The notes under the pieces are model-generated. The model saw only the letters and a list, made by a program, of their open reading frames with translations. It did no database searches and was not told the DNA's origin. Of a stretch of DNA of 50,215 bases, positions 1,503 to 47,729 are shown one piece after another; the stretch's first letter is position 1; each line of letters opens with the position of its first letter. The position numbers and the translations under genes were made by a program. This stretch comes from Folioceros fuciformis (lineage: Eukaryota). Location of the stretch: contig JBNGIO010005972.1 of the NCBI GenBank assembly GCA_049999805.1, forward strand, positions 1 through 50,215, given 5' to 3'.

Positions 1503-3049
1503 ATGCGCTTGCTCTTCCTGTTCGTCAGATGCATGGCGCTGCTGTTGCTTGCGGCGATGCAATTGCACGCTGCCCCTCTACAACCTGCTTTCTGGGCGTG
1601 CAACCCGCGCCCGGATTTGGACTTCAATGTCACTTTCGGCACCAGGATACCCAACTGCTGCAGCCACGCAGAGCTAATGACGCTGCAAGCGGAGCCGGAG
1701 CACAAGACCTGGCAGCAGTATCTGGAGCAGAACCCGCTGCCTCGCGAGCTCCGCTTCCGCCCAGCCGCGCATTTGGTGGCCGGGAACGAGACGTACCTCC
1801 GGCAGCTGGACCTTGCGTATCGGCTCATCCGTGCCATCCCCGACGCCGACCCTAGGTCGCAATTCCAGCAAATGAACCTCCACTGCATCTACGGCGTGCA
1901 GGGAGTGGTGCCGCAGGCCGGGGCCCTAGACCTGGATTACACCGTGCATTCCAACTGGCTCTTCTTCCCCTTCCACCGCTGGTGAGCTTGTGATATCTGG
2001 TTCTTTCTTCCCCTGCAATGGCCGTGAGGTTGCACGTATTTCGACCCAGTGCACGTTCTTGCTGTTGCTTCAATTGTTTTTTGCAAGCCTTTGCGGAGAT
2101 GCGATGGCGATGGGTAAAGCCAATACGCGCCCACCTCAGTGCCTGGTGGGTCATTGCAGGTTCACGTTCTTCTACGAGCGGATTCTGGCCAAGCTGGTGG
2201 GCGACGAAACGTTCGCGCTGCCATTCTGGAACTGGGACAACCAGACTTCCGATTTGGAGCAAGAGCCCCCGCACGCCATCCCGGGCTTCATGAAGGACCC
2301 TGACCGCTACCCGGGGCTGTACAACAAATACCGGGACCCCCGACACGCGCCGGATGCGCCAAGGACTATGGTGAATTGCATCAAGGAATCGGTGTTCGAA
2401 GGCTACTCAGCATACTCGGCCGAGGAAATGGTTGCACAGCGGGCCATGAACAACGCGCACTTGCACGAGGTGATCGTGAAGCGCACCGCCAACGGCGAGC
2501 GGGAGCCCTTCCTCTCCTTCCCCGCCAGGAAAGGCGCTATGGTTCCCGACTTCTCAGAGTTCCAGGGCACATTCGAATCTCAACCGCACATAGCGGTGCA
2601 TTTCTGGGTGGGAGACCGGGCGTACTCCTACGCTGACATGGGCGTCACCTACCACGCCGTCCGCGATCCCCTCTTCTTCTTGCACCACGCCAACGTGGAC
2701 AGGCTCTGGAACGTCTGGCTGGTGAGTTGAAGTCGTCCAAATGTCATGTTCCAGAATCTGATGGCCGGACGCCATTCGAATCGCTATACTTACCGGGGCT
2801 GGGGCTGTGGTGCTGCTGTAATCCATGCACTTGCAGGGGCTGGAAGGAAGGAGCAACTACGACGACCCAGACTTCCTGGATGCCGCTTTCTACTTCTACG
2901 ATGAAAATGCCGAGGTCGTCAAAGTCACGGTTGCAGATTGCCTCCACTCAGACCTGTTGGGGTACAGTTACCAGCAAGTGGACAACCCCTGGCTCACCTA
3001 CGACGCCTCACAGCACCAACAAACATTCCCACAGCACGCAGAAGCGTAA
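1503..3049 (+). CDS. PPO: Polyphenol oxidase / tyrosinase-family protein, copy 1 (signal peptide, no C-terminal shield domain), ~417 aa; exons 1503-1981, 2160-2721, 2837-3049
   Basis: CuA HCIYG...VHSNWLFFPFHRW; FALPFWNWD; CuB PHIAVH...DMG...RDPLFFLHHANVDRLW; DWL-type domain DPDFL...FYDEN...GYSY...NPW. GT-AG introns 1982-2159 and 2722-2836 restore the frame. An alternative ATG lies at 1533. Confidence 0.93.
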
Positions 3050-4122
3050 CTAGGTGGTAGGATGCGGACTCGATCCGGGCTTCGAATTCCCCCGCGTCTG
3101 CCAGCGTTCGACATAACGAGAAAGCAGAGATACGTTTCTGCTGTCATCGTTGCTGTGGTCATTGCCGGACCCTTTTGGCAAAGGCAACAGGAATAAGGCA
3201 CGCAGTTGTCGTATTCCAAGCATTATTGTTTGTCTATGTAACGTTAAATCTTTTACTTGAATTGAGCTGTTCGAAAAAAAAGGCAGCTCTGCACGTAGAT
3301 GCTGTGAAGTGTGTCTTGGTTACGCTTTGTGGGTGGGATTGTGGGATCTGTTTTACAGCCTCGATTGGGACGATATGTAAATGTAGCTGCGTAAACAGGC
3401 TATGCATGAGCCTCCGTCATGCCCGTAAGCCATTGATCGTGACTCCTGACGAAAGGAGCCACACTGTGCACACTACTGGGATGGGTGTCGCGTGCTGCGT
3501 GTAGTACTCAGTCTAATGCCCCTGGCACGTAGAGCTCAGGTTACAGGCGGAACGCACAAGAAAAAATGGACGGTGGCTGGTCAGTCATAAAGTACAAACA
3601 CGAACTGGTGCTGCTGCGACTTGGCACGCGCCTGGCACATTTTCTTTTTGCTTATTACATCCAGCATCGGACCAGCGGGCTGTACCCTCCGTCCCAGACT
3701 TTCGACAAGTCCAGCCCCAGCTGCGAAGCCCTGCGCCGCGACAGGTGTCAAGCGAGGTTCGCAGCATCTTGCCATCGGAATATCATCTTGGGCCACGCGG
3801 ACCGGCGGCTCCGGACTCTGCCACTGTGTTTTCCTGGAGACTGGACTCCTCATCACGAGTGGGGTCCCAGTAGGCCAGAATAGACTCACATTGGAGACTC
3901 CAATTGGGCCCACCCAGAAAGAGTACAATAATGTACACAACTGCACGCACTGCCGAGCGGTAGGCTCTCGTTGGTAGCAACCGTGGAGTGTCTGATTTCT
4001 GCACGCAAAGGCATCGGAGAGGTGAATGTTGCTGGAGTAGGTACGCTGGTGAGGTTGAAAATTCAGACAGCCCACATGTGAGTTCTCACTTCCAGCTCCT
4101 CCACAGCAAGGTTGTGGCGTCC

Positions 4123-5649
4123 ATGACAGGCTTCCACGACTCGAGAACGTTGCAGCGGCCGCTGAAGCTGCGGGTGCCGCTGCTGCTGCTGCTGCTGCTA
4201 AGCGCTGCATTGGCAGCGCTACCGGTGGCAGCCGCCCCCATCTCGGCTGACTTCTGGGACTGCAACACGTGGCCGCAGTGGCCCGCCAAGATCGGCAATC
4301 TGTGGCCCAATTGCTGCAAGCTGAAGGAGCTGCTGCGCAAGCCCGAGCCCCTGTACAAGACCTGGAATGAGTACGTGGAGCAGAGCGGGCTCCAGAGCAG
4401 GCAACCCGTGGTGCGACGGCCTGCGCATCTGCTTGCCCAGAATGACACCTACTTGCGGCAGCTGGACCTGGCGTACCACAGAGTGAAGGCGCTGCCCAAC
4501 ACCGATCCCAGGTCGCTCTTCCTGCAGATGAATTTCCATTGCATCTACGGCAGCCCTGGCGTGGTGCACCAGCCCGGCCGCCCCGACCTCAGATACGTGG
4601 CGCACAACAGCTGGCTCTTCTTCCCCTTCCATCGCTGGTACCTTGATTTCGGACTAACCTCAAGCCCGGATCCATGCTCATTCGTTCTTCCAGCCTGCTG
4701 CAGCGTTGTAGTCTTCAGACTTTGCATGCTGCAATCCAGCAATGTACGCTAATAATTGTCATGGAATTGTATGTGCCGAAGGTACACCTTCTTCTTCGAA
4801 CGAATCCTTGCAACGCTGGTGGAGGACGACTCCTTCGCCCTGCCCTTCTGGAACTGGGACAACCAGAGCCCCGACTATTACCCCCTGCCGAACGTCGTCC
4901 CTCCCTTCATGCGCGACCCCAACAATTTCCCAGGCCTCTTCAGCTACAACCGCCATCCTCGGCACCTACCCGGAGCTCCCCTCACGCTGGTCAATCTCAA
5001 CGTGGACTCCTCCCGGGAAGGATACTCCGCCTTCTCCCCGGAGGAGATTGCAGAGCAGCGGAGAGCCAACAACGCGCATCTGCACAGAGTGATCGTGGAG
5101 AGCACCGCTCACGGAGAGCAGGGCCCCTTCCTATCTTACCCGGTGCGAGCAGGCGAAGACATCCCGGATTACAGCACATGGTCGCAGGGCTTTGAGGCGC
5201 AAGCGCATCTTGCAGTCCACATATGGTTGGGAGACCCGGAACACTCGTTTGCGGACATGGGTGTCACTTACCACGCTGTTCGAGACCCGCTCTTCTTTTT
5301 GCACCACGCCAATGTCGACAGGATGTGGAACGTGTGGCTGGTGGGCATTTCATTTCCTGTTGTTATCGCACTTCAATTTTGTTGCTCTTGCAATGCGGCC
5401 CGATCTGTCATGAATAATGCGCATGTCACCTGGCAGGGGCTGGAGGGAAGGAGCAACTACGATGACCCAGATTTCCTGGATGCTGCTTTCTTTTTCTACG
5501 ACGAGTTTGGGGAGCTTGTGAGAGTCACAATTGCGGACGGCTTGGACTCGTCCCAGCTCAAATACACCTACCAGGAGGTGGAAAATCCCTGGATCGCCTA
5601 CGGCGCCTCGTCTGCGGCACAGGAAGCCCAAGCCCATTCCCAAGCTTGA
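4123..5649 (+). CDS. PPO: Polyphenol oxidase copy 2, ~428 aa; exons 4123-4637, 4782-5340, 5437-5649
   Basis: Poly-Leu signal peptide; HCIYG; AHNSWLFFPFHRW; AHLAVH; RDPLFFLHHANVDRMW. Introns sit at the same codon positions as in copy 1. Confidence 0.93.
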
Positions 5650-7019
5650 CGCTTTTTGTGAGCTATGATTTCGTGTCTTGTTGATTCTCAGTGCCGAAAT
5701 GGGACATCGTCATTTCCTTGTGTACGTGTGTGCATGTAAAACTGTGCTCGCAAGCACATACTGTACGTACATTATATGCGGATACAATCATATCTACATA
5801 CGGTATTCTATTTCCGTGTTGTCAGACGACGAAGTCGTTTCAGACCACCTGGATCTTGACATGAGGGGAGGAATTGGAAAACATGTACACTGTATACCCG
5901 TCAGGAAGATCATCTGCTCACGACCGGTCTTGAGGCATGTCTGGCCCTTGCTACCGACAACATGTGCACCGATTCTGAAGAGAATATCTCATGGTGGGAT
6001 TCGGTTGCGAACCAGTCTGTCACAAAACTGGACTACAAGGAAACACCGTCCCCAGTCGGGACCCCATCCATCCGTCTTCCTGCCTCACAGATGATGGCCC
6101 TTCTACTCCGTTCTGGTACAAGTGACAAAACTAGCAGACAGGTAAACACCGTTCCCAGCCCAGCCGGGACCCCATCGGTTCGTCTTCATGTCCATGGTCA
6201 TCTGGAAAACAAACAGCTCTGCAAAGCTGTGTCGGCTAAAGCAAGCACCGGAAGGTAGGTACTGCAGCACTCTTGTGAGGGTTAACTGTGAGTTGTGTAC
6301 GCCGCTAGTCACACTTCAAAGCTTAGAGTTTACGTTGCTATTTTTCTCTAAAGAAATTATGTATGATTGATTTGCTCAAAGTCTGGTCTGGGGCTCAAGT
6401 CGTGAAGGAAAAGGTGCTTTGTCGTGGGCCACCTGCTATATGCACAACGTGTAGATGTAGTGAAAAGGCAATTTTTCCATCGTTGTGCAGAGGACTTGAT
6501 CAGGGACTTGTCAACGTCCAGACAAGGGCCTGGAAAGGACTTCGCTGACAGAGTGTGACTCATTCCATTCCCGCAAGCGCAAGACCGCATCGACCACAGA
6601 TGGTACGGCTTGATGCCTTCCTTGCTGCCTCCTGGCTTGCAGGGGGCTATGATTAAGAGCATGGGTCCCTCGGCTGGTCCCTCTCCCTTGGTTATTCGCT
6701 TGCACTATTCCCTGGCGGGCCCGGAATACGCCTGCGCGGCTCATTATGAAAGCCGCGCTCTACGGGCCCATGCTGAACCACCGGACAAAGTTGTGAGGCA
6801 CGGCTTTCCAAGAACATGGGCCCCACCACATTCCATCCTGCCCATGCTCCATGCATACCATGAGGCCACCGGTCCTGCCCTGGTGTGCTCTTCACCGTCG
6901 CGCACGCCGGTGCGATTCCACCGGCTACCTCCCGTCTATCTCCACAGCTTATACATACGAAGACGTATCGCTAATCGGATACATTTGAATGTTGAAATCA
7001 AATTACTTGCCTGCTCCAG

Positions 7020-7275
7020 CGACGCGAAGTTTTCGTGCTCGCTCCAAGTCGGGAGGCCAAGAAGGAACGTCGCGAAGCCTTTGTGCTCGCTCAGGTCGAG
7101 AGGCCAAGAGGCAACGCCGCTAAGCATCCGTGCTCGCTCANNNNNNNNNNGTGCTCGCTCAAGTCGAGAGGCCAAGAGGCAACGCCGCTAAGCATCCTTG
7201 CTCGCTCAGGTCGAGAGGCCAAGAGGCAATGCCGCTAAGCATCCGTGCTCGCTCTAGTCGGGAGGCCATGAGGCA
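7020..7275 (+). repeat. Left subterminal tandem array of the MULE, 47-bp unit GTGCTCGCTCAAGTCGAGAGGCCAAGAGGCAACGCCGCTAAGCATCC (spans an N gap)
   Basis: Units recur at 47-bp spacing (e.g. 7151, 7198, 7245). Confidence 0.9.
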
Positions 7276-8873
7276 TCGCATGCAACACTATGAGAACTAG
7301 AGGAACTGGGTTTGGGGTCTATCGTTTCTTTTGAATTCCAGCATGTTTTCTCATTACTGTAGTTGTAGATATCAATCCATTGTATGATGGATACACTTGT
7401 AGCCTAATCCACGCACAAGATCTTGGGGTTGTCCATCATCACGTTGTGATCAGTGTCCTTGTGGTGCAATGTGACAAGATTGTTCTGTATGTGGCCTGCC
7501 CCAACTAGAACTTGAAGTTGCTTGCAATTGGCAATTGTAGATATTGTGAGGAGCATCTAGTGTTCAGGAAATTGAACTTCTGACTACGTTTGATAATACA
7601 AGATGCAAAATGTAGGGCACGAGTTGTGGCCTTTGAAGCAGCAAGGGATTTTTTTTGTCTATGTCACCAATTCAGCATAGTACATTGTAGATAAACAAGG
7701 AACGTGGTGAGTTGTTGCACGGGCTAGTTAGGAAACATTGGTAGTGTTCCTTTAGCATTATATCTCCCAAGAATAGTGGACCACCATACATTAAGGTGGA
7801 TAGAGTTGAGGCAATAATGCGACAGCAGTTGTTTCATAGCGAGGCACTATCTCCTAAGACACTCCCAACCAGCCTATTCTCATGGAAGCTCCTTCTTATG
7901 AACTGCCTACATATCTAGTTCAACATCAAAATTAAACCAAGCTAACAGTAAGGTGGAGATAAATATTCCATGTCTAGCATTATTTTTTATTGGCTTCACT
8001 TTTGGAGCTATTGCTATGGGCTTGATTGTGTTAGGCATGTTGTGAGCTTTTAGTAAACGAAATAGTAGTTGATAGAAAATTTTTCAAATTGCATATAGTA
8101 TTACTTCTTTCACTAGCAATTCAAATAGCAAGTAGCTACTTATAAAGAAGCACTCACGTGCCTTAGCTACCAGCTTGTTGACCACTAGATGCCTAGTTTG
8201 TAAATATTTGTTTCTGTTGCTTTGTGACAGGAACTTGCTAGGCCTCAACGAATTCTATAGGAAGGGCACCCTTTGCAATGTGCCTAGGACCTTGACTTTC
8301 TCAAAATACTAGTTTTCTTTTTAAGCTGTTATCTCTTGTAAGGATGCTTTCCGAAAAAGTAAATTGTTAATGGACACCTAACTCTTGTGCTCCTAGCTCT
8401 TCAATTTTCCAAATGGCTTGTTGCAAGAAGCCTGTAGTATGCTTCTCCAATTGTCGCCATTTTTCAACCATTATGCATATTTTCTTGAATTGTGCCTCCA
8501 AAACTGCACCTCTTTGATATTATTGGTTGCATTGGGTTGCACTTATGGCTTCATTCATGGCCTCTAGTATTTCTTTTTCCGCATATTCATGATCCAATGT
8601 TTTTGCTGTAAGATGAATGGGGACATCTTCAAGTTGTGCCATGTGCATAAAATGCCACACGAGTTGCTGAGTCAAAGTAAAGTTTCCCCAATAACATCCT
8701 AACCTTCCCTTGGTGATTACAAATAAAGCCCTACATAGCATATGGGCAATTGCACAAAGGCCAATTAGTGGAGGCATGTTTCACGTCATATACCGACAAG
8801 TGATTTTGTTTTCGCTCCGGACATAAGCTGAAGAATTGGTCTCTACGGGCAAAACAACATTTGCATCATTGAT

Positions 8874-9554
8874 TTTTTTTTTCGCAAAGAAAAAAAATAT
8901 GATTATACGTAGCTCAAGATACAGCAAGATTACAGTACTTGCTCACATAATTGTGTAAGGCATTAGTCTACATGCTAATTCCTAAACTGCAGAAGTGATC
9001 AAACCAGAACTATCATGTAGGCGAGAGATCCCTCGTCAATGGATGACTCACCTTCCCCATGGGTAGGTGTGGTTCCACTGGCCATTATGCCCAAGGAATT
9101 CGGCTGTCTTCCACTCTGTTCGACTGAACTTGTTGTGGGCAAAAGTACGAATGCTCTCCACAGTCACCAGGACCTATTCCTAGATACGCCAAAGTAGAGC
9201 TTTCCTTGATACCAGGTCGTTACCGCCATAGACCATTGCTATCTAGTTTTGCCACATGACGAAGAGAGACAGAGACCATACCACTCCCCACCACTGCTTC
9301 TGTACAAGAGGCTCTCCTGCCCGCTCATCAAGCTCGAATAGGGCGGTTTGCTCTGTAACCAAAATGGTTCTCTCTAGGAGAAGGTTTTGAAGCCTCCTGC
9401 CAACTTCAATCCAGACACCTTGCGCATAGTTGCACTGAAAGAAGATATGTTGGCTTTTGTGAGAGGCGCCAACATTACAAAGCCTACACCATTCCTCCCC
9501 CGTGGTTGCCAGCAACCCGTCCCAACAATCTGTGTTAGGCAAGCAAGCTTGAAA
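8874..9554 (-). mobile_element. 5'-truncated L1-like LINE (zf-RVT region plus 3' end) inserted in the MULE transposase
   Basis: CRLCNVGASHKSQHIFFQCNYAQGVW zinc-knuckle. Poly(T) at 8873-8882 is the minus-strand poly(A) tail. TSD GCATCATTGAT (8863-8873) / GCATCATTAAT (9555-9565). Confidence 0.8.
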
Positions 9555-10859
9555 GCATCATTAATATTTGAAGCCTTCGTCACGACATGTGGCACCATTC
9601 TCTTTAATTTCACATTTCCTATAATGCCTTGTGTGGAACGTGAAATTTTGGGACATGGGACGGGCTCCTATCCTACCGTGTTGAGTGCTTTGCCCAAATA
9701 ATGGTTTGATTTGTGTCTTTGTTTTTTTTCCTTTCTGTCTATTTGAGTCTTGTTTTGTGTTCCTTGGTCTTTGATGGTCAACTTATGCATCGAACATATC
9801 TACACATTTTGTAGGTCTATGAAGTCAATATCTAACAAGATTTTCCATCAATTATTTTAGTGTACATACCAGAAGGAGTGGAATTTATTAAGACAGTTGG
9901 TCTGATTTTGGTAGGTTGGCCTACGGCCATTCAAAGTGTCTTTGAGAGCAATGTGTTTGTCAATCCTATGTGTGAGGCGGAGGATAAAACTCCCAAGTCT
10001 AATAGGGTAATATGAAATAGGTGTTAGTTAATGTCAACTAAGTATCTGTGGATAATAAGCCTACGTGGCAGGTAGGTCAGACAACAAGAGGATGTCATGT
10101 ACTTAGGGAGATCAAAGCAGATTCAGGACATGTGTGAGCATGCATAGTGGGAGTAAAACAAACGATGGAGGGGCAAGCTCCTTATATATGCAGTGAAGAT
10201 TTTGAAGGCCAAGGAGCGCAAGAGGACTGATTTCTCAGTGTGTGAAGGAGAGGTGGAGTCCTTGGGCTTCGATGTTTTGGGAAATTGGCAGCTGCCTATA
10301 TAAGATGGCCAGAGCTACCAAGACAACTCACGTTGGACATAATGACAAGGCTAGAAGGAGAAGCGGAAAGGGTGACCCGCTAGACTTCGAGGAACTTTGG
10401 AAGAAGAAAGGGTGCACCTTCAGAGCTACATGTTGAAGACCAATCAAGAGCTGTTGAAGATTGCCAAGAGGAAGGCCATTGAGCCTCATGACGATGTCCG
10501 AGCTAAGTTGAAGAAGTCCATCGCTCCCATGTCGGAATGGAAAGAAGACAATGGCATGGATGGAGAAGATTCTGAGTGCAAGGAGTTACTTGAGTAGGAG
10601 AAAGAAGAATGGGCATGAGAAGCTGCTAAAACATTGCCTGATTGAGCAGAGCTACCGCCATAGGAGGGACTCATTACCGAACCACCTATAGAGATAGAAG
10701 GGAGTAAACCTACGAACGGTGGAGAAAGACAGCTAGAGAAAGGAGAACCTATTACGGAGAAGGATAAAGAGCGAGAAGAGATGCAAGAGGGGAAAAAGGA
10801 CAAAATTTGACAATATTGTTTAGAGAGAACAATAGACTTGAATAATGAATGAGATAATA

Positions 10860-12505
10860 ATGATTACAAAGAGTTGGTCTTAAATACTAAACCCTAAGTG
10901 TTAACTATGTAACCCTTCATAATATATCTAACCCTAGTCTAGGTAACCTTGTGACCGTGGTTACTATAATTAACACACCCCCTCAACCACGACGTTGGTC
11001 ATACTAAGGGCACAGACAAAAAACGAAGATGGCCAAAGTAGAAAACGAGTTGAGTGTTGGACGATTATGCATGTAGTAAGCTTCATCCGTCCAGCACCCA
11101 GCGCCTCCATCTGCAACCCAAGGCAAGTAGGAAGAATACTCTTCCAGGCCCAATGCCTCCAGGTGGAAAACATGCTTGCTTGTCGGTAAGCTCTTTGTAA
11201 GCACATCAGCGGTGTTCAACTCTGTTGATATACACTCAATCTTGATGACCTTATGCTCCATAGAATGTCGAACAAAATGATGGTGAACTTCTATGTATTT
11301 GGTGCACACGTGAAATTGAGGATTCCCTACCAACACTATGGTTGACATGTTGTCACAGAAGATGGTTGTAGGGATAGCCTGTGGAAAATTCAAACCAGCA
11401 AGGAAAGTCAGCTCCCATTCGGCCTCCTTGGCTGAATCCGTAAGAGCCTTATAGTGCATTGGTGGATGAGAGAGCAATGAATGTCTGCTTCTTCGAACTC
11501 CAATTAACAGTTGTACCAGATAGGAGGAAGCAGTATGCAGAGATGCTCTAACATTGATCTGGGTTAGTCACCCAGTCCGCATAAGCCTACCCCTTCAAGG
11601 TGAGGTCATTGTCTTGCCCTTGAAAGCAGAGTCCAAAAGTAAAAGTTCCTTTTAGATACCTTAAAATCCATTTAACGGTCATCCAGTGTTCTTGGCCAAG
11701 ATTCTCCAGATATTATGAAATTGCACTCACGGAATGCTGGATGTCAGGTTGTGTCCAGCAGCTGATATAGTTGAGGCAGCCCACAACATGCCGATAAGGA
11801 ATCTGGCTCATGGCTTCTCGATCATCATCATCCTGAGGACACTAAAGAGTAGAAAGCTTAACACCAACACATCCATGAGTACTAACTGGCTTAGCATCCT
11901 GAAGATTAAAATGCCAAAGTGTCTCTTCGATGTACTTGGTTTGATGAAGAATCAAAGTACGTGTTTCCCTATCCCTAAGAAGCTGTACACCTAAAACAAA
12001 AGTGAGAGGACCAATATCTTTCATATCATACTATTTATGAAACATGCCCTTAGCCCAATCTAACAGCCCTTGATTATTTGACGCCAAGATGGCATAATCT
12101 ACATAAAGAGCTAAAACAACTAGGTAACTACCCTTGGTGTAGAAATACATATGAGAATCTGCTGGGTTATGCAGGAAACCTATAGAGCGAAGATACTTGT
12201 CTATGCATTTATACCACTCACGGGCACTATGTTTGAGCCCATATCAGGTCTTCTTAAGATTACATGCCCAATCTGGGTGTTCAAGATGCACAAGGCCCTC
12301 AGGCTGATCCATATAAATGTTTTCCTCCAAATCGCCATAGAGGAAAGCTGTGGAGACATCCATATGTTCCAAATCCGAATCCCTAGCTATAGCCCAGGCT
12401 AATATCATCCGGATACATTGAGTCTTCACAACCGGGCTAAAGGTTTCGTTAAAATCAACACCTGCTACTTGAGAAAATCCACGAGCAACAAGGTCATGTT
12501 CGCCT
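10860..12505 (-). mobile_element. Ty1/copia fragment (RT-RNase H, PPT, start of 3' LTR) nested in the MULE
   Basis: LVARGFSQVAGVDFNETFSPVVK; HMDVSTAFLYGDLEENIYMDQPEG; IFCDNMSTI...TKYIEVHHHFVR...ADVLTKSL. Minus-strand PPT TTGAGGGGGTG, then TGTTA at 10975. The left boundary is approximate. Confidence 0.88.
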
Positions 12506-14385
12506 AGCACGGCAAACATGTCAAAGGCATAGGAAAATCAATGTAGATAACCCAAATGTAAGTTGGATGGCACTAATCTCAACTTGCAATCATCGACTAA
12601 AAAGGCATTAGGTGTTCACTCACCCTTACTTTGAAGCATAAATAGCTTAAGGTTCGAAAGCCAAGTACTAATGTCCAAAGTAATTACTGAGTTGGTGATA
12701 ATCCAAGCCATAGGAATGCCATTCATGTGGTCGTCGAACACTAGACAAGTGAATAATTAAAAGTACAAATTGTGCACGCCAAACATCATGTTAGTTTATT
12801 AACTTACTAACTTAATAAAATAATTGAACTTATGAGCTTAATTTTTTTAAACAAAATTAGCTTAAAATATAAATACCTAAACTAAAGTTTTGTGCTATTA
12901 CCTTCCATTGTTGGTTCAAAATGTGGTGTTCATGGTTATCAAGGACTTATGATTCACTTTAGCATCATTCTACGTTGAAATGGAGTTTGTATGCTAAGAA
13001 TAAAGTTTGGAGACAAACCTTGATCCTTATAGTACAATGGAAAATGCATTTCCAATGGAGGTCTTTCCACAAATGCACACTATCTGCGTCATTACTGTGT
13101 AGCCTCCAAGACCTTGCTTGCAACTCACTTTGAAAATTCCAAATGTCCTTCATAACCAAATAATCGTCCTATTGAAGTTGACATTAGATTAGTTGACATT
13201 AGAAGGATTAGCTTTCCTCTTGGCATAATCTTTAGCCACATGGTCTCCAAGAATATTATGTGGACTTAATTTGCAAAGCAACTTATGCTTTACTCACTCT
13301 CTTTTAGTGTTAGGGAAGGTGCTATTTGAAACTTAGTTAGCCCATCAAAATGTAAGAGCCCCTGACAAAAGTTATTATCACTATTAATATGGAACCAACC
13401 ATGTATATGAATTTGAGCAACAACAGGCCAAGGTACCAACCGACTAATGAAAAAAATAAATTGGCAATTATATTTCACGTTTTCACCAGCATTAACCCAG
13501 GCTTTTCTATTGCTTTTTTCCACTTTAGGTCGTATTGACATGTCTAACAAGAGCTCCTTGCTAGTCAGCCCTTTTGTTCTTAGGTCCATAAGCATACTCA
13601 TATTTTGTATATTCTACAGCGCTAGAGTTTGTGACTTTGTACATCCTTTGCAAGGGAGCTTTCTAATGCTCTCTTCTCACAAGCTTGGTTGGAAAAATGA
13701 AGTTATCCTGCTCTCCTTGCAAGAAATCATCTGTCTTGTTTGCCATAACATATGCCAACTTAATAGAAGACATTTTTTGGCGAATTGTATGAGTACTTAC
13801 AATCCACTATAAAGACTCTTTCCCAAATGCACCAAGTGGAGGATATTGGATGAGAAAGGTGCAACCCTCAAGAGTAGCATCTAGATCCAAGCTGGCCATT
13901 CTTTGCCTATGAGTTGATGCCAGGAATTTTTGGAAATAAATCAAAAGTCAGCATATGGCTACACCTAAAATCACCAAGTCATGACCTGTGAGCTGAGCAA
14001 CAATGGATTCATTAGAACAGAAATTAGAAAAGAGAAAGAGATCATTCATGGCAGCAACAAAGTACCTCAAAAATTAGGAAGGCAATGACATATCGTAGTG
14101 CAGAAGGATGATATAATTGTCTGCTGTGAGGGTTAAGTGTGCACAATGGTTTGATAGGAGGGCTCAATCTGCACAATGGTCAACTACAATCAGTGAACTA
14201 GCACCTTGGTTTGTTGCAATGCTTATAATCATACTTTGGCACAAGCATGGCAGCAACTAAAGCCAACCACAATGAACTCAGATGCACATTCCAAACCCAA
14301 GCATCCATACACTCTTACCAGTTTTCATGATTGTGGAGGTATAACAATAGCTAGATAGCAGGCATGGCCACTGCTACAAACAGCA

Positions 14386-14697
14386 GACACTTGTAAATTA
14401 TTACTGTCCAGCCCCAGCGCCTGCAAATTAGATCCCAACTCTAGCTTCAGTGCCTGCAAATTAGAGTCCAGCTCTAGCCCCAACACCTGCAAATTACAGT
14501 CCAGCTCCACCTCCAGCGCCTGCGGATTATAGTCCAACTCCAGCTTCAGTGCTTGCAAATCACAGTCCAGCTCCAAGCTGCAAAAGTTGAGGTGCTTGCA
14601 AACTATAGTCCAGCTCCAGCTTCGGTGCTTGCAAATCACAGTCTAGCTCCAAGCTGCAAAAGCTGAGGCGCTTGCAAAATGTAGTCTAGCTCCAAGT
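14386..14697. repeat. Degenerate ~33-bp tandem repeat (GTCCAGCTCCAGCTTCAGTGCTTGCAAATCACA-like) inside the MULE
   Basis: About 9 units visible. Reads SPAPxPxPANY on + and LELDCNLQAL on -. Confidence 0.85.
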
Positions 14698-14739
14698 TTC
14701 GAAGTTTTTTGCCTAAATAATGTGGGCGATGAAAGGCTT

Positions 14740-15035
14740 CAAAGTTTTGGCATGNNNNNNNNNNNNNNNNNNNNNNNNNNNNNNNNNNNNNNNNNNNNNN
14801 NNNNNNNNNNNNNNNNNNNNNNNNNNNNNNNNNNNNNNNNNNNNNNNNNNNNNNTTTGGCATGAGGAACGTGGGCGAGGTAAAAGAACAAGCTTCGAGAC
14901 TTTGGCATTTGGAACGTGGGCGAGGTAAAAGAACAAGATTCGAGACTTTGGCATGAGGAACGTGGGCGAGGTAAAAGAACAAGCTTCGAGACTTTGGCTA
15001 GAGGAACACGGGCGAGGAAAGTATTCGAAACATTG
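14740..15035 (+). repeat. Right subterminal tandem array of the MULE, 46-bp unit TTTGGCATGAGGAACGTGGGCGAGGTAAAAGAACAAGCTTCGAGAC (spans an N gap)
   Basis: Units start at 14855, 14901, 14947 and 14993. Confidence 0.9.
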
Positions 15036-15626
15036 GCACCCAGTTTGAGATACGATGTTTAATAAATATATGAGATACAAAATACAGACGCCTGGCCATG
15101 CACAAGGCCGGTGACCGGTGGTCTCGCACCGGCGTGCGCGACGGTGAAGAGCACGCCTGGCACGACGGGTGGCCTCATGGTATGCATGGGGCATGGGCAA
15201 GGATGGCATGTGGGTCGCTCACGTGCTTGGAAAGCCGTGCCTTATAAATAACTTTGTCAGGAGGTTTAGCATGAGCCCGCTCTGTGACGTCTGATGGCTG
15301 CCGTGCCCGAAACACCCTGCTACCCTTCCGACAACCCGTCGTGATGCGTGTCATCCCACGGCCTCTTGTACCGGCTCGGGCTCGAGCTCGTCCGTGAGTG
15401 ATCTTGCTTCGACCCTTCTTGGGCATGGACATCTGTCCCCGTTGCTGGGCCCACAGTGCAATGTTGGACAGAGCATACATGCACATATGTGCATATGTCT
15501 GCATTTGTTGTAGTGGACACGAGTGTAAGGAAAGCCTGTTCTTGCGGACTCCCGGGATCCTCCACCCTGTCTACACAGCACACGTGTTTCAAAAGTTTGC
15601 CGCAGTGCCGCCTACCATCGAACAAA

Positions 15627-15630
15627 CCTG

Positions 15631-15673
<43 letters not shown>

Positions 15674-15712
15674 CCCTGGCCCTGGCCCTGGCTCTGGCTC
15701 TGGCCCTGGCCC
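15627..15712 (+). repeat. (CTCTGG/CCCTGG)n hexanucleotide microsatellite
   Basis: About 14 direct hexamer units, ~340 bp upstream of the PPO copy 3 ATG. Confidence 0.95.
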
Positions 15713-16050
15713 ACTAGCCCAGGCTGGGCCCCAGAGTTCGTTCTCGTGTTCAGGGACCCTGGCCAGGACCAGGAAGAAAGACGCGGGCCCATTGGAAGGC
15801 GACTAGAGAGAGATGAAGAATCACGACTGGTAGGCAGCACCAACAGTAAGTTATGCAGCGTGACCCCGAGAGTGACCATGGCGGAGTTTCCCTCCGAGTG
15901 TGGCCACATGGCGCACACAATTGCATAATGTCACACGACTACGCTGGGGCAAGCCCTGTGAGAAAAGCTGTCATTGCACGAGGAGCTAGCTACTTGGCTT
16001 ACACAATCTTCACTGCTCAAGGGAGTGGAAACTGTGAGCGGAAAACAGCC

Positions 16051-17490
16051 ATGGTGTGCAGGACCACCCTGCTGCTCCTGCTCTTGGCCATGGCCATCGG
16101 GGCAGCAGCCGCTCCCCTGGAGGCTGACTTCTGGAACTGCAACCCCAACCCGGCCTGGCCCGACAGAAATGGTAATCTACACCCAAATTGCTGCAAGCTG
16201 GAGGCGCTCATGCGCAAGCCCAAGCCGCTGTACAAGACATGGCATCAGTATTTGGAGAAGCACCCACTTCCCAAGCAGCCCAGGGTGCGGCAGGCCGCGC
16301 ATCTGGTGGCCAACAACGACACCTACCTGCGGCAGCTGGACCTAGCGTACCAGCGGCTCAAGGCGCTTCCTGATTCCAACCCCATTTCCGAATTCAACAT
16401 CATGAACCTGCACTGCGTCTACGGCTCGCCTGGAGTGATAAAGCAGGCCAACCTCACCGACCGCCTCTACCTAGTGCACAACAGCTGGACTTTCTTCCCA
16501 TTTCATCGCTGGTACTCACCCTGCTTTGTTTGCAAGCATTGCAATTGAATTTGGCCTTCAAGCTGCTGTGCACGAATTTGAGAACCTCCTGTGTAGGTTT
16601 ACTTTCTTCTTCGAGAGGACCCTCGCCAAGTTGGTGGGAGATGATAACTTTGCTCTGCCCTTCTGGAACTGGGACAATCAGAGTCCCGATTATGAGCATC
16701 TTCCCAACACCATGCCCCTCTTCTTCCGAGATCCCGTCAAGTACCCCGGGCTCTACTCCAAGTATCGGGATGTCCGCCACCAGCCTGGAGCTCCGCCTGC
16801 AGTGGTCAACCTCATTCTGGATGACGTGCGTTCCGCAGGCACTAAAACTGCGGTTACGCCTGAAGAGATGGCTCGACAGCGCGCCATCAACAACGCGCAT
16901 TTGCATAACCTGATTGTGGAAAGGACTGCCACTGGCGAGAGGCACCCCTTCTTGTCCTACCCGATTCACCATGGGGAGGAACTCCCACACCCCGAAGGCT
17001 GGAACGACATTTTCGAGCTGCAGGCGCACATTGCTGTGCATTTCTGGACGGGAGATAGCAGTATGTACTATGCCGACATGGGTGTGATCTACCACGGCCC
17101 CAGGGATCCCCTCTTCTTCGTACATCACGCAAACGTGGATAGAATGTGGAATGTGTGGCTGGTAAGGACCTTCAGTTTTTCTGTTGAACGATTTGCAGCT
17201 CTTTGCCCATACCAGCATAGTTTCTGAATAATTATGTGTCCTATGAGTTGTGTGTGTTGCAGGGACTGGAGGGCAGGAGCAACTACGATGAGCCAGACTT
17301 CCTGGATGCTGCTTTCTTTTTCTACGATGAGGATGGCGAAATTGTTAGAGTAACTGTGGCCGAAGGTCTTCATAATGAATTGCTTGGATACACGTACCAA
17401 GAGGTTGAAAATCCATGGGTCACCTACGATGCCTCGGCTGATCCAGATTTTTCGCTTCACACCACTTCTCTTGGGCATGTCCAAGCTTGA
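16051..17490 (+). CDS. PPO: Polyphenol oxidase copy 3, ~417 aa; exons 16051-16511, 16597-17161, 17263-17490
   Basis: Signal peptide MVCRTTLLLLLLAMAIGAAA; HCVYG; VHNSWTFFPFHRW; AHIAVH; RDPLFFVHHANVDRMW. Same two intron positions as copies 1 and 2. Confidence 0.93.
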
Positions 17491-19021
17491 TTTGTTAGCC
17501 TTCTTATACCAAGTCCGGCAGTGTATACTTATCCGGATCGTCATGTTTTTCAAACCACAGAACGGACCGAAAAAAAGAGAACTGTAAACCACGTAAGTCC
17601 TCTTCCAAGTACAGAGCTCAGCCTGGTATCTACCATTGTTCTGATTTGGAAGGTTCAAACACCTTGCACTCCAGACGCATCCACACCTTTCGCTCCGATG
17701 ACTGTTGTAGAACACAGTGAAGACACGCTTTGCAGACTATAAGAAATCGAATGAGCTGCGTATTTGGCTTTAGTTGGTGACGATGATGCTACAACCAGGT
17801 CACCCAAGCAGCTGATGCCACCCACGACCCATACACGCTAACTGCCGCCTGCAGTTGAGAAAGAACAGAATAGCATTCGCACTGTGCTCTTCTTTCACCT
17901 TAAGGAATTCGAGTCGAATCACAATTATGGCCTCCAAGATTCGGAGTATGTCTCTTCTCTCTTCCCCTGCCTCCTTCCCTGTCCGGTGCCAAGCTGTTTG
18001 TCGGACTTACTGCTCGGCATATGGAGTCGGACGTGACACAAGTACTCATGCATGCACCTTTGAACCACAAGCCATTATGGTCTTGTTTGTTTTGCATCAT
18101 CCCTGTTACTTTTGGAAGAACTCCATTTGGCTACCATGTAACATTGCATGTACAGTCTACTTTGCAACAACATCAGCTGCTGAAAAGTTCCCGGGTCGTG
18201 GAAATGCTCCAGCCAGAGGGACATCACACCTTTCTGAGGCGGAGTTGGAAGCCATAATTCGAAGCTGGGCCTTGAGCAATTTCAACCTTACCAGGCTGCT
18301 TAGACCAGCAACCTTCACGGCTCCGAGGCCAGTGCCATTTGAGCGCAAAAAACAGACCTCTAAACACAAGAGCGTAAATGCATCTTTGTCTTGATGCATC
18401 AACGTGAGGATGCATTGTTGCCCACCGGCTATCCGTCGCCGAAGTTTAACAAGCCTATACAACATGTGCGACTCGCTGGCCGGGGTCTTCTCTCCCTTCC
18501 CGGGAAAGTGCTTTTTGTCCGCGGTGAGCAACATGACTTGTTTCGTTATCCCACGCAATACGGGCACTTACAAACCAAAAAAAAAGGCCATGGGTGCCAC
18601 TTTTGAAGAGGAACCAACTCGGGCAGTAGAGACGGACGTGGAAAGGTTAGAGAGGCTTGCGCAAGATGAGGATTATCTGAATGCAGCCCGTATATCTGAA
18701 TGCAGTCCGCAACAAACTTCATGCCAAGCGGATTCGATCAACAACCTTTGATCTTCACATCGACAACCTTCACATCCAGCAAGTTACATAACAATAATGC
18801 ACAGATACGTGAGGTAAACGAAGCGTGGATGAAGTCCTTGGTTAGATAGATGCAATCATGGTCGGCATTTTGCCTCTGTTATGTATGATAGATCCAAACA
18901 GGCATCTCAGAAAGAATATGTTTCGATGACAAGATCACAATGCAACAATATCATATTGGGGGTGCTTGGAAGAAACCACTGAACACCCTAAACACCAGCT
19001 GGGAACATCTGGTGCAGAAGC

Positions 19022-24290: not shown

Positions 24291-24553
24291 GGGATCTGGG
24301 CCACCCTACGGCTGGGATCTGGGCCACCCTACGGCTGGGATCTGGGCCACCCTACGGCTGGGATCTGGGCCACCCTACGGCTGGGATCTGGGCCACCCTA
24401 CGGCTGGGATCTGGGCCACCCTACGGCTGNNNNNNNNNNNNNNNNNNNNNNNNNNNNNNNNNNNNNNNNNNNNNNNNNNNNNNNNNNNNNNNNNNNNNNN
24501 NNNNNNNNNNNNNNNNNNNNNNNNNNNNNTGGGATCTGGACCACCCTACGGCT
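24291..24553 (+). repeat. 23-bp minisatellite GGGATCTGGGCCACCCTACGGCT (at least 7 copies, N gap), within a GATC-rich region (~23960-24740) that is probably TE-derived
   Basis: Six exact copies at 24291-24428 and one near-exact copy after the gap; degenerate copies flank the array. Confidence 0.9.
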
Positions 24554-26021: not shown

Positions 26022-27458
26022 TAGTCAAACCTCTCTAATTGGGACCCCTATAAATGAGAACCCCCTTTTAAGTGGGACGCCCAGGCTTACTCCCTTGAAT
26101 GTGCTACATGCTAAATGGGAAACCCCTCTAATTTGTAAAGGGGAACATGTCTCCCAAACATTCAATGCAAGTACACCTCTATAAAAGGGAAAATATATAT
26201 TTAAAAAAATAAAAAAAATGAAGAAAATCATCTTACTGAGATTAAATCATTATGTCACGTTAAAGGCTATCGAGATTATATCATAAGACATAGACAGTCA
26301 TCGAGATTGAGCCTATATATGTAGTAGTTCTGTACAATATGTTTTGTGATCAAAAGCATTGTTCCTAGTACATAAGTTATTTCATTGTACAAGTTGTCTT
26401 ATGGTGTTGTAAGTTGTGTTATGGTGTTGTAAGTTGTTATCTTGCTGTGAGATATTTTGTAGGTGTTCCTTACCCAATGTGACAAGCGTGTATCAACCTT
26501 TGGACCGAGGAATCATCCGTTCTTTCAAGGCCTTGTATCGCAAGTTAATGATTTCGTACCAATGCAACCAGATCATAGAAAATGCGGCTACAACTATTGA
26601 TGTATATCAAGCAGTGGTTATGCTGGTAAAAGCTTGGACTTCATTTGTGAGTCCTCATACCATATGCAATTGTTGGAGGCATAGTACTTTGGATGCGGAA
26701 TTGCATGCACAAGATGCTCGGTTCCGTGAGTCTTTGGATCTAAACAGTGCACCATATGATCCAAAGGATCCATTGTCGGATCCTCAAAATCACTCTAATT
26801 CGTTGGAAACGCAGGTAGAAGAGCTACAACAGTCCATGCGAAGCTTAGCATTATGAACATCTGAGGATATGACAAGAATTGCTGATGTTGGATATCCAAC
26901 GATGACAGTTGAAGAGTATCTGAACTTTGAGGAGGATGAAGTATTGGAGACTACGTATATCTCTACATAGGACGAAATATGGCAAGCATTAATCCCTGCA
27001 GTTGTCAATGAGGAGGGTGAGGAGAATGATACAGCGTCAGTAGAGACCATAATACCAAGACCTCGTACAACAAAGGATGCTGAAGATAATGCTATGAGGA
27101 TAACGAAGATGTTTTTGGAAGATATGCCACATAACACTCTTGATGCTTTGAAGTTGCATTCTCAGTTGGAAAAACATATTGCTAGTCATTGGATGAAAGC
27201 AATTCAACATCAATCAAGGATTGATGATTATTTTAACCCGGCAAACTAGAATTAGGTTCGCAGCTATGTAGTATGAGGGAGCATTTTAGATTTTTTGGAA
27301 GCCTTTAAGCTCTTTCAAATTTTTTATTTAAAGGATTTTTTTTGATTTTTTTTAAATATTTTTATTTTCAAAAAAGATGAAAATGCCTAAACGAGAACCC
27401 CTCTAAATGGGACGATTTTTGCTACTCCCAATTGTTCCCAATTAGAGGGGTCTGACTG
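26022..27458 (+). mobile_element. pogo/Tigger-like (Tc1/mariner superfamily) non-autonomous DNA transposon
   Basis: 23-bp TIRs TAGTCAAACCTCTCTAATTGGGA / TCCCAATTAGAGGGGTCTGACTG (20/23 match). TA on both sides (26020-21, 27459-60). DDE_1 fragment LPNVTSVYQPLDRGIIRSFKALYRK...AW...TICNCWR. Subterminal GAGAACCC...GGGACG repeats. Confidence 0.88.
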
Positions 27459-31959: not shown

Positions 31960-32320
31960 AAAGAAAAAATGTCTATGTTTATGATAGCTAGATCAGGATG
32001 CCCCATGGCTGTACACTGCCAATCTGGTTATGTTCATTTAGGTTAAAAATACCAGATCATAAATACCCAAGTGTCCTTATTTAGGTTAAAAATACCAGAT
32101 CATAAATACCCATGTGTCCTTATTTAGGTTAAAAATACCAAATCATAAATACCCAAGTGTCCTTATCGGTATTCCACAATCCAGAAAAAATGTCTATGTT
32201 TATGATGATAGCTAGANNNNNNNNNNTATTCCACAATCCAGAAAAAATGTCTATGTTTATGATGATAGCTAGATCAGGATGCCCCATGGCTGCACATTGC
32301 CAATTGGTATTCCACAATCC
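31960..32320. repeat. Local tandem duplications (43-bp unit ATTTAGGTTAAAAATACCAGATCATAAATACCCAAGTGTCCTT x3; ~50-bp unit around an N gap)
   Basis: Direct repeats are visible. The copy flanking the gap may be an assembly artefact. Confidence 0.75.
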
Positions 32321-47537: not shown

Positions 47538-47729
47538 TCCAGGGTTTCAGGAAAACCAGGGGCGCATCCACAGCGCTTGCCTTCTCCTTCCACCGGCGAA
47601 TTTGCGCCGGCCCAGAGAGCAAGCTGCTGCAATTACAGACTCTAAGCTTTGCATCGAATCTAGCTGTCACGAAGATACATGGAGAAGCCTTGTATGACAG
47701 ACTCCTGGGCTCTTCGAAGGCTTGACTTT

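Follow-up and report, generated by a model that had tools for sequence, protein, structure and literature searches.

Does a plant genome encode polyphenol oxidases (PPOs), which are copper enzymes that oxidise phenols, directly in an open form, routed to the secretory pathway and built without the C-terminal domain that shields the active site? This question is raised by three genes located between positions 1503 and 17490 of a stretch of DNA 50,215 nucleotides in length (hereafter called the window). An earlier note had described these genes as a tandem trio of secreted PPOs that end shortly after the DWL domain. PPOs are among the most expanded enzyme families of bryophytes, and the aurone-forming enzyme of Marchantia is the only one described as having a well-characterised activity (PMC13240065). 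The reading we favor, at a probability of about 0.72, is that the locus carries three functional paralogs of a short-form, secretory-pathway, plant-type PPO (tyrosinase plus DWL) from a bryophyte-grade plant, most likely a hornwort as judged from the relationships of these PPOs. The presence of three tandem short PPO genes of secreted type is confirmed by our analysis, and every test run supports the predicted architecture, which consists of a signal-type leader and the Tyrosinase and DWL domains, with no KFDV domain and no downstream KFDV exon.

Models derived from the reading frames reveal three intact genes on the plus strand, each with three exons, that encode proteins of 417, 428 and 417 amino acids. 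Gene 1 (1503-1981, 2160-2721 and 2837-3049) begins with an exon that, on the basis of frames, hydropathy and alignment, encodes a 23-residue leader (1503-1571), an N-terminal region with Cys and Cys-Cys motifs, and the CuA region up to FHRW, and that ends at a GTGAGC donor at position 1982. The second exon of this gene carries the remainder of the tyrosinase domain, including the third CuA region and the CuB motif HIAVH...HH (PF00264, E 2.1e-25, profile positions 37-211 of 214), and the third carries PPO1_DWL with the sequence YSY (PF12142, E 1.1e-20), a tail of 18 residues and a TAA stop codon at 3047-3049. Gene 2 (4123-4637, 4782-5340 and 5437-5649) has a leader of 37 residues with a long n-region (4123-4233) followed by the CuA part, a tyrosinase domain in exon 2 (PF00264, E 1.8e-23), and a third exon with PPO1_DWL (PF12142, E 2.2e-20), an 18-residue tail and a TGA stop codon. 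Gene 3 (16051-16511, 16597-17161 and 17263-17490) is organized in the same order, with a 20-residue leader (16051-16110) ahead of the CuA part, a tyrosinase domain (PF00264, E 1.3e-21), and PPO1_DWL (PF12142, E 7.5e-19) followed by a 23-residue tail and TGA.

All introns are of the GT..AG type and occupy two positions common to the three genes, and GC3 is 0.68-0.80 in the exons versus a GC content of 0.41-0.53 in the introns. The genes are old paralogs under purifying selection, with pairwise identities of 59-64%, dS values of 1.3-1.6 and dN/dS ratios of 0.20-0.26. The proposal that they had expanded locally therefore holds only in an old sense, given this degree of divergence. The term 'tandem trio' likewise requires some adjustment. 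The genes do share a strand, but gene 3 is not adjacent to gene 2 and instead lies 10.4 kb downstream, past copia-type fragments and two gaps. Genes 1 and 2 are separated by only 1.07 kb (3050-4122), a spacer with neither an assembly gap nor KFDV-like coding potential. The spacer between genes 2 and 3 (5650-16050) holds retroelement fragments and runs of N at 7141-7150 and 14755-14854. On its minus strand are a copia-type RVT_2 (reverse-transcriptase) fragment at 12247-12537 and a further retroelement-like open reading frame, with no Pfam match, at 11007-11567. No PPO remnants were found in this spacer by tblastn.

The catalytic portion of each protein is that of a plant PPO. A Pfam scan, which had been suggested as a check, detected Tyrosinase in all three second exons (E 2e-25 to 1e-21) and PPO1_DWL in all three third exons (E 1e-20 to 8e-19), with the latter matches spanning profile positions 2-49 of 52. 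The YxY of the DWL module reads YSY in gene 1 and YTY in genes 2 and 3. Alignment reveals that all six copper-binding histidines are present (HC.YG, VH.(S/N)W, FHRW, H..VH and LHH), as is the 'water-keeper' glutamate. Each protein also has the four cysteines whose aligned counterparts in plant PPOs form the two N-terminal disulfides, with a pairing that we take to be that of the grape structure.

The distance from the closing PW of the DWL domain to the stop codon is 18, 18 and 23 residues for genes 1, 2 and 3, respectively, against the 15 to 20 residues estimated earlier. Because the proteins stop 18-23 residues after DWL, the C-terminal shielding domain of ~150 residues is not encoded. Searches for this domain agree with the earlier claim that PPO1_KFDV is absent. 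Pfam finds PF12143 in none of 71 downstream plus-strand open reading frames at E<=10, and tblastn searches of the window with nine C-terminal segments as queries yield matches confined to the DWL parts of those segments, with none in KFDV. A custom shield HMM built from 104 C-terminal domains gives a best E-value of only 9.9 among the 1964 six-frame open reading frames on both strands of the window. The search is sensitive, since a control HMM (101 rows, of which 100 had E-values no higher than the seed-plant range) recovered 13 of 13 held-out long forms from lycophytes, ferns, liverworts and hornworts, including the Nothoceros long form P0296 at E 4e-14.

It could be argued that the short ends are artefacts of gene modeling or assembly, or that they mark truncated pseudogenes, such that the real genes had or have a KFDV exon. 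Two observations give this view some footing, namely the two gaps between genes 2 and 3 and the tblastn alignments that extend beyond the gene 3 stop codon. The latter, produced by two C-terminal queries and reaching 17553 and 17586, exhibited no real similarity on inspection, and a relic of the shield domain past gene 3 was therefore rejected. Moreover, all three paralogs end at the same place despite their divergence, the spacer between genes 1 and 2 is free of gaps, the dN/dS ratios are low, no KFDV-like signal occurs anywhere in the window, and the hornwort transcript discussed below has the same kind of end. We consider truncation by artefact or decay to be hardly credible.

We next consider the N-terminal leaders, which precede a conserved 'AP' by 23, 37 and 20 residues in genes 1, 2 and 3. 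Their hydrophobic cores reach 10-residue Kyte-Doolittle means of up to 2.7-3.3, Ser and Thr make up 0-10% of the residues, small residues occupy positions -1 and -3, and no twin-arginine is found in any of the three. In alignments, the leaders end at A|AP, which is the start of the mature chain in canonical plastid PPOs. Features of a bipartite plastid/thylakoid leader are absent, and plastid-type comparators carry ~80-130 residues before the AP. These rule-based features and the alignment fit the earlier proposal of an ER-type signal peptide rather than a bipartite transit peptide, and each leader is thus probably a cleavable ER signal peptide. One complication is that in-frame ATGs occur upstream of the proposed starts of genes 1 and 3, as far as ~68 and ~66 codons away, respectively. 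If used, these would add long N-terminal extensions.

Such extensions, or an unrecognised 5′ exon, might supply a stromal transit peptide, in which case the hydrophobic leader would be a thylakoid transfer domain and the proteins would reside in the plastid or thylakoid lumen. The open upstream frames with their additional ATGs, and a leader that ends at the same AxA|AP site cut by the thylakoid peptidase in canonical PPOs, speak for such a scenario. However, conservation among the paralogs is confined to the hydrophobic core and what follows it, no twin-arginine precedes this core, and gene 2 has no upstream in-frame ATG. Furthermore, the closest homologue, P0001, is a 'complete' transcript open reading frame that begins directly with the leader, and Physcomitrella PPOs are described as being in general predicted to be secretory (PMC3472199). 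A plastid location is therefore very unlikely.

In the mature part of the three proteins (45-46 kDa), no 19-residue window exceeds a Kyte-Doolittle value of 0.9 and no membrane segment is found, nor is there an ER-retention signal (KDEL or HDEL). For such proteins, the apoplast or cell wall would be the default destination of the secretory pathway, with the vacuole as a possible alternative. The shared sequons pointed out earlier, N[ED]T and WDNQ[ST], occupy aligned positions in all three genes, and the proteins may carry N-glycans at N[ED]T and NQ[ST]. However, WDNQS is weak evidence for glycosylation because it also occurs in the lycophyte PPO P0003, which has a plastid-type leader.

Delivery to the vacuole rather than the wall, with a role in soluble specialised metabolism like that of aureusidin synthase, would be one way to interpret these leaders by analogy. 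AmAS1 and PtrPPO13, given as the only plant PPOs with both a signal peptide and a proven location, are vacuolar (PMC3472199), and a conserved H-x-[E/Q]-A at the end of all three tails could serve as a sorting cue. Nevertheless, we recognise no vacuolar sorting motif. The aurone-forming Marchantia PPO probably resides in the cell wall, predictions place many bryophyte PPOs outside the cell, and it has been suggested that hornworts, which are reported to be without PSPG-type UGTs, may emphasise cell-wall phenolics (all as given in PMC13240065). On balance, we judge a vacuolar destination to be somewhat unlikely.

The closest relative of the three proteins is a 418-residue 'complete' transcript open reading frame of Nothoceros aenigmaticus (P0001; EukProt EP00246), which is 46-47% identical. 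A profile search of 1.84 billion representatives (E<=0.001) followed by blastp revealed no closer relative among the best 150 of 4834 proteins. Like the three proteins, the Nothoceros protein has a leader of the signal type that ends at A|AP, HCxYG instead of HCxYC, both sequons, and no shield domain. Its gate residue is Ala, which is small like those of the three genes, but its tail is 41 residues in length rather than 18-23. In a tree of 44 rows it groups with the three proteins at 100/100 support. Given that the identity is only 46-47%, P0001 is best regarded, from sequence comparison, as a distant paralogue or orthologue.

The origin of this hornwort short clade is more difficult to place. 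A FastTree analysis of 285 rows put long-form Calypogeia PPOs as its sister group with a support of 92. This placement was not recovered in the careful 44-row tree, whose backbone is unresolved, and we therefore name no sister group. That the shield was lost secondarily is no more than the more parsimonious reading. The three proteins also fall outside the short clade of Marchantia and Riccia in the 44-row tree. An origin independent of that clade is not advanced as an established claim, because a single clade is not rejected by the AU test (p 0.083).

An AlphaFold2 model was evaluated for P0001, a 46%-identical homologue that stands in for the three proteins themselves (pLDDT 87.5, pTM 0.88). 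The model superposes on nearly the whole of the processed, active plant PPOs from grape (2P3X) and walnut (5CE9) and of sweet potato catechol oxidase (1BT1), with TM scores of 0.89-0.90 by target length, whereas only the catalytic part of latent PPO forms is covered (TM 0.56-0.63). The three genes are predicted to encode the same fold and the same chain extent as 2P3X, 5CE9 and 1BT1, and they end about where those enzymes end once the shield is proteolytically removed. This cleavage was placed just after YxY by Tran et al. (PMC3472199). The difference is that the grape, walnut and sweet potato enzymes start out as latent plastid precursors of ~60 kDa and have both the thioether Cys and the Phe gate, whereas the genes described here encode the short form directly. 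Their products would thus equal the proteolytically activated form of ordinary PPOs and would need no activation.

Latency might nonetheless be imposed by the short tail or by a separate partner, in a manner analogous to Streptomyces tyrosinase with its caddie protein. Bacterial short tyrosinases with caddie-type control do exist (PMC7010833), and in the P0001 model a tail helix (residues 386-397, pLDDT 81-95) packs confidently on the core, such that part of this longer tail possibly forms a small plug. The tails of the three proteins are shorter, at just 18-23 residues, and diverge except for the last four, which form the conserved H-x-[E/Q]-A noted above. In addition, no conserved small open reading frame lies beside the three genes. 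A closed state of this kind seems improbable, and the favored reading remains that of enzymes that would be open when made.

The thioether and gate positions of the active site are unusual. The cysteine that forms the thioether (HxxxC, four residues past the first CuA histidine) is Gly in all three proteins and in P0001, and is Cys in 275 of 294 aligned homologues. The position of the Phe gate is Thr, Thr and Ile in genes 1, 2 and 3, respectively. With Gly for Cys and these residues for Phe, a more open and flexible active site than usual would be expected, although loss of the thioether could instead mean lower stability or changed activity. The residue at HB1+1 is Ile or Leu rather than Asn, which, by the Asn/Glu rule that we take to distinguish tyrosinase from o-diphenol oxidase chemistry, suggests that the enzymes act as o-diphenol oxidases. 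A likely role would be to oxidise and couple phenolics that are extracellular or bound to the wall, and the proteins may be constitutively open apoplastic or vacuolar enzymes for the synthesis of wall-bound pigments or polymers.

More tentatively, the three proteins and P0001 might represent a DWL-bearing clade of the hornwort lineage that lost two 'type-2' PPO hallmarks together, the C-terminal shield and the Cys-His thioether, while the Phe gate was replaced by small residues. The always-open, secreted design of the fungal 'short PPO' would then have arisen anew by convergence. If true, the thioether would matter mainly for the latent, shielded pro-enzyme, and the substrates of these enzymes would be bulky or bound phenolics of the wall, for example of the hydroxycinnamate or lignan type. 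Hornworts are, to our knowledge, a plant group that makes no flavonoids. The thioether Cys is absent from 11 of 28 short forms versus 1 of 249 long forms (Fisher p 1.6e-11, with kinship ignored). Only 3-4 of 14 kinship-aware independent pairs carry information. These agree in direction, and this underpowered comparison gives a sign-test p of about 0.13-0.6. This Cys is reported to be only 76% conserved in type i PPOs (PMC11803259). We regard the joint loss as a doubtful possibility.

The statement in the earlier note that secreted or truncated PPOs have been described in some bryophytes proved to be sound, as short forms are in print for hornworts, liverworts and mosses (PMC7010833; PMC13240065). 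Therefore, the genes described here are new members of an already published class that is abundant in hornworts, and the discovery is incremental. Table 1 of Davies et al. 2026 (PMC13240065), whose legend defines a short form by the presence of PF00264 and the absence of the C-terminal PF12143, lists short forms among all PPOs as 29 of 39 in Anthoceros agrestis, 30 of 41 in A. punctatus, 6 of 10 in Leiosporoceros, 20 of 32 in Phaeoceros and 24 of 71 in Marchantia. The three genes, which are complete and carry PF00264 without PF12143, fall within this definition. They share with the bryophyte short forms described in print a tyrosinase domain without PF12143, a non-plastid leader and membership in large lineage-specific families (Davies et al. 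2020, PMC7010833; Davies et al. 2026, PMC13240065). The short forms of Marchantia are designated 'Type-1' and are described as nearer to bacterial and fungal sequences (PMC13240065). In contrast, the proteins encoded here contain DWL and are nearest to plant PPOs in both sequence and structure. Among the features of plant-type PPOs (type i of Meitil et al. 2025), they have tyrosinase and DWL but not KFDV, the thioether Cys or a bipartite leader.

Long PPOs of the secretory pathway or vacuole, namely those of Physcomitrella, AmAS1 and PtrPPO13, are similarly described as having a signal peptide and no transit peptide (PMC3472199), but they keep the C-terminal domain. The same is true of the hornwort long form P0296, which has a signal peptide and both sequons. 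Fungal short PPOs (type f, such as AoCO4; o-methoxy phenolases) are reported to be secreted and free of a shielding domain (PMC11803259), and would in principle work in the same way, as extracellular phenol oxidases that are always open. They differ in belonging to the type 1 lineage and having no DWL, and none is among the sequence or fold matches listed for the three proteins or P0001, of which the best are all plant PPOs.

Naturally shield-less PPOs routed for secretion would be active wherever they are delivered. In early land-plant lineages they are therefore candidates for roles in UV screening, in defence or in the cross-linking of wall phenolics. The genes examined here are clean and intact, have a hornwort relative that is supported by a transcript, and should be convenient test cases for determining activity without activation, location in the cell, and the effect of a missing thioether and small gate on substrate range. 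The window also contains an intronless tRNA-dihydrouridine synthase gene, for which no match was closer than those to liverworts and mosses, at 72-75%.

The earlier note described three tandem polyphenol oxidase (PPO) genes, here called g1, g2 and g3, and this observation is confirmed by gene models, Pfam searches and alignment. All three reside on the plus strand within positions 1503-17490 and have an identical three-exon layout: g1 (1503-1981, 2160-2721 and 2837-3049; 417 amino acids), g2 (4123-4637, 4782-5340 and 5437-5649; 428 amino acids) and g3 (16051-16511, 16597-17161 and 17263-17490; 417 amino acids). GT and AG bound all six introns (85-178 nucleotides), which occupy two sites shared by the three genes: one interrupts the Trp codon of FHRW, and the other follows NVWL. 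A tblastn search of the whole window with these models revealed no additional PPO copy. The window represents plant (eukaryotic) DNA whose introns are short and whose overall GC content is 48%. Genes g1 and g2 are 1.07 kb apart, and g3 is located a further 10.4 kb downstream, beyond a spacer that carries an RVT_2 fragment, a second retroelement-like ORF and two assembly gaps. Gaps of N occur at 7141-7150, 14755-14854, 24430-24529 and 32217-32226 (four in all), and retroelement or transposon fragments occupy 11007-12537 (minus strand), 19317-20217 (minus) and 26413-26853 (plus), representing copia-type RVT_2 (E 2.5e-22 and 3.4e-07) and DDE_1 transposase (E 3.4e-11).

Protein identity is 59-64% across the three pairs. 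We rejected the possibility that the genes are recent copies or decaying pseudogenes, given an exon GC3 of 0.68-0.80 versus an intron GC of 0.41-0.53, pairwise dS values of 1.3-1.6 (saturated) and dN/dS ratios of 0.20-0.26. As judged from these sequence measures, g1-g3 are old duplicates under purifying selection. An antisense ORF of 335 codons (3581-4588, minus strand), rich in Ala, Arg and Gly, overlaps the g1-g2 spacer and the beginning of g2; Pfam recognizes no domain in it, and the GC richness of the sequence probably accounts for it. A microsatellite-like stretch at ~15600-15760, ~300 nucleotides upstream of g3, translates as (GS)n/(GP)n, (EP)n or (WL)n depending on the frame.

Pfam searches with the nine exon translations identified Tyrosinase (PF00264) in all three second exons (E 2.1e-25, 1.8e-23 and 1.3e-21 for g1, g2 and g3) and PPO1_DWL (PF12142) in all three third exons (E 1.1e-20, 2.2e-20 and 7.5e-19), while the first exons gave a single sub-threshold Tyrosinase match (E 0.14) and otherwise none. 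Four cysteines (C...CC...HC) in each protein align with the N-terminal cysteines of plant PPOs, where we take them to form two disulfides, as in the grape structure. The proteins end 18 (g1), 18 (g2) and 23 (g3) residues past the PW that closes the DWL domain, in agreement with the early stop that had been proposed.

The absence of the C-terminal PPO1_KFDV domain (PF12143; the shield) was likewise borne out, by three kinds of search. First, PF12143 matched none of the 71 plus-strand ORFs (all those of at least 30 amino acids from stop to stop) in 2950-4200, 5550-8600 and 17400-20400 at E<=10, and the sole PPO-related Pfam matches among them fell on the known exon 3, at its DWL end. Second, the C-terminal 230 residues of nine long homologues (lycophyte, liverwort, conifer and angiosperm), used as tblastn queries against the whole window, recovered the DWL parts only, with everything else at E>=0.09. 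Two of these alignments, past the g3 stop codon, were considered as a shield relic and proved on inspection to be without real similarity. Third, a shield HMM built from 104 C-terminal regions, run with all filters off against every six-frame ORF of 15 or more amino acids on both strands of the whole window (1964 in all), gave a best E value of 9.9. A control HMM of 101 rows, made by removing three lycophyte rows, recovered 13 of 13 held-out long forms from lycophytes, ferns, liverworts and hornworts (E 7e-35 to 5e-4), the other ten of which had never been in training. Among its detections was P0296, a long-form PPO of the hornwort Nothoceros (E 3.6e-14), and it also found some 40-residue pieces, such as three of ten for P0296 and five of eight for each lycophyte protein. 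Given this sensitivity, a shield split among exons in the hornwort manner would most likely have been seen.

The C-terminal tails of g1-g3 are divergent except for a final H-x-[E/Q]-A, which is HAEA in g1 (3035-3046), HSQA in g2 (5635-5646) and HVQA in g3 (17476-17487), all on the plus strand. This ending might act as a signal for sorting or processing.

At the other end, the leaders preceding a conserved AP (23, 37 and 20 residues in g1, g2 and g3) have a hydrophobic core whose highest Kyte-Doolittle mean over 10 residues is 2.7-3.3, at least one basic residue, Ala at -1, 0-10% Ser plus Thr and no twin arginine. Canonical PPO leaders, in contrast, span ~80-130 residues and carry RR(D/Q)(V/L)L; their mature-chain start aligns with the A|AP of g1-g3. 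These features favor a leader of the signal-peptide type over a plastid type, as the earlier note had suggested. Nucleotide conservation among the genes starts at the hydrophobic core, with none upstream; additional in-frame ATGs precede the proposed g1 and g3 starts, and the nearest one in g1 would add just 12 residues to the n-region. In the mature parts (391-397 amino acids, 45-46 kDa, pI 5.3-5.8), hydropathy points to no membrane-like segment (the highest mean over 19 residues is <0.9), and neither KDEL nor HDEL is present. The common N-glycosylation sequons, N[ED]T and WDNQ[ST], do align across g1-g3 and are compatible with, but no proof of, passage through the ER; WDNQS is also carried by a lycophyte PPO whose leader is of the plastid type. 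Both sequons also align in P0296 and in P0001, a 418-residue PPO from Nothoceros aenigmaticus.

P0001 was the top match in a word-indexed search of longer proteins with g1 exon 2 (265 candidates, 57 at E<=0.001). It is a Trinity/TransDecoder ORF labeled 'complete', with Pfam Tyrosinase and DWL only, and begins straight with a signal-type leader ending in A|AP. The spliced models share 46.2-46.6% identity with P0001 and at most 44% with any other protein (blastp), and nothing nearer appeared among the best 150 of 4834 matches (E<=0.001) when 1.84 billion representatives were searched with a profile. Its C-terminus is SAAA, unlike those of g1-g3. Two trees, a careful one of 44 rows and a FastTree of 285 rows, both unite g1-g3 and P0001 in a clade (support 100/100 and 100, respectively); the backbone of the PPO family is poorly supported. 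Long Calypogeia PPOs bearing signal peptides are sister to this clade in the FastTree (support 92) but not in the 44-row tree. In the latter, short PPOs (without PF12143) from Marchantia and Riccia (P0389, P0384, P0414 and P0422) form a separate clade (100/99) that adjoins Chara (88/74); constraining them together with the hornwort short clade costs 14.9 log-likelihood units and is not rejected (AU p 0.083). Because the shield is homologous across the long forms of hornworts, liverworts, ferns, lycophytes and seed plants, its loss in the ancestor of the g1-g3/P0001 clade would be the simpler reading. This affinity of the PPOs, taken with the matches of a tRNA-dihydrouridine synthase gene described below, makes a hornwort the probable source of the window.

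Exon 1 of the hornwort short clade carries an insertion of ~10 residues between the CC pair and R.R..AH (consensus-like L..L....P.P.YKTW..YLE) that is absent from other PPOs in the same alignment. Five metagenome-derived short Tyrosinase-DWL proteins (P0008, P0023, P0024, P0028 and P0029; 343-372 amino acids, ending at PW), from JGI, ENA and Logan contigs of 1-35 kb, also form a clade (100/99). The 44-row tree groups them with lycophyte and seed-plant PPOs (81/76, a weak placement drawn open) and not with Sorangium; they may correspond to the DWL-bearing catechol oxidases of bacteria that PMC10541563 discusses.

A model of P0001 from a 53-row alignment that included the window exons has a mean pLDDT of 87.5 and a pTM of 0.88, with lower confidence in the insertion region (pLDDT ~71). 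The top Foldseek matches in the PDB are the processed, active enzymes of grape (2P3X), walnut (5CE9) and sweet potato (1BT1), with TM scores of 0.89-0.90 normalized to their chains of 336-339 residues, whereas latent forms (6ELS, 4Z11-14) are covered over the catalytic part only (TM 0.56-0.63). The grape chain has 339 residues, and phmmer aligns its residues 336-337 with the PW of P0001; Tran et al. place ordinary shield cleavage just after YxY (PMC3472199). This match in fold and length to processed PPOs suggests that the g1-g3/P0001 family directly encodes the shield-removed form. A tail helix in the P0001 model (386-397) is confident (pLDDT 81-95); the shorter tails of g1-g3 lack this segment.

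The six copper histidines and the Glu before CuB are present in g1-g3. At HB1+1, g1 and g3 have Ile and g2 has Leu; at HB2+1, g1 and g3 have Phe and g2 has Ile. By the residue rule for these positions, this would point to diphenolase rather than tyrosinase activity. Four positions after the first CuA His, 275 of 294 aligned homologues have Cys and eight have Gly, among them g1-g3 (HC.YG at ~1884-1898, ~4540-4554 and ~16414-16428, plus strand) and P0001. This Cys is joined to the second CuA His by a thioether bond (PMC3472199), and its reported conservation in plant-type PPOs is just 76% (PMC11803259). The gate residue, which is Phe in 191 homologues and Leu in 72, is Thr in g1 and g2, Ile in g3 and Ala in P0001; non-Phe gates are noted in Chara and Physcomitrium (PMC10541563). 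Cys is missing from 11 of 28 short versus 1 of 249 long forms (277 usable rows; Fisher p 1.6e-11, kinship ignored). On the tree this corresponds to five changes of state. Of 14 independent pairs, three to four carry information, and every one of these points the same way (underpowered sign test, p 0.125-0.625), which is suggestive of a coupling between the losses of the thioether Cys and the shield. In g1-g3 the thioether Cys, the Phe gate and the shield are all missing.

Related architectures are known from the literature. Tran et al. (2012) predict signal peptides for Physcomitrella PPOs and regard vacuolar enzymes as the sole proven non-plastid PPOs (PMC3472199). PF12143 is missing from 13 of 16 Chara catechol oxidases and present in 20 of 32 Physcomitrium PPOs, leaving 12 without by subtraction (PMC10541563). 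Davies et al. (2020) describe 'short' Marchantia PPOs without the C-terminal domain, including an auronidin-related gene (PMC7010833), and Davies et al. (2026) tabulate short and canonical PPOs in 20 bryophyte genomes, with 29/39, 30/41, 6/10 and 20/32 short forms in four hornworts and many bryophyte PPOs predicted in the cell wall (PMC13240065). Because this class is already described, g1-g3 are further members of it. Our search of the open-access literature found no report on the enzymology or localization of a hornwort short PPO. The proposed architecture of leader, Tyrosinase and DWL without a shield is supported, and the suggestion that such enzymes are constitutively open apoplastic or vacuolar oxidases can reasonably be inferred.

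Other genes are also evident in the window. An ORF of 355 codons (44234-45301, plus strand) contains four PsbY units (PF06298, four stretches, E 4.5e-47) and looks like a four-copy PsbY polyprotein; Arabidopsis PsbY has two copies. A ribosomal protein L36e exon is found at 42938-43150 (plus strand, E 9.7e-30). A tRNA-dihydrouridine synthase gene on the minus strand at 46545-47546 (334-residue ORF, apparently without introns) best matches liverworts and mosses (72-75%), followed by lycophyte, conifer and Chara proteins (69-71%).
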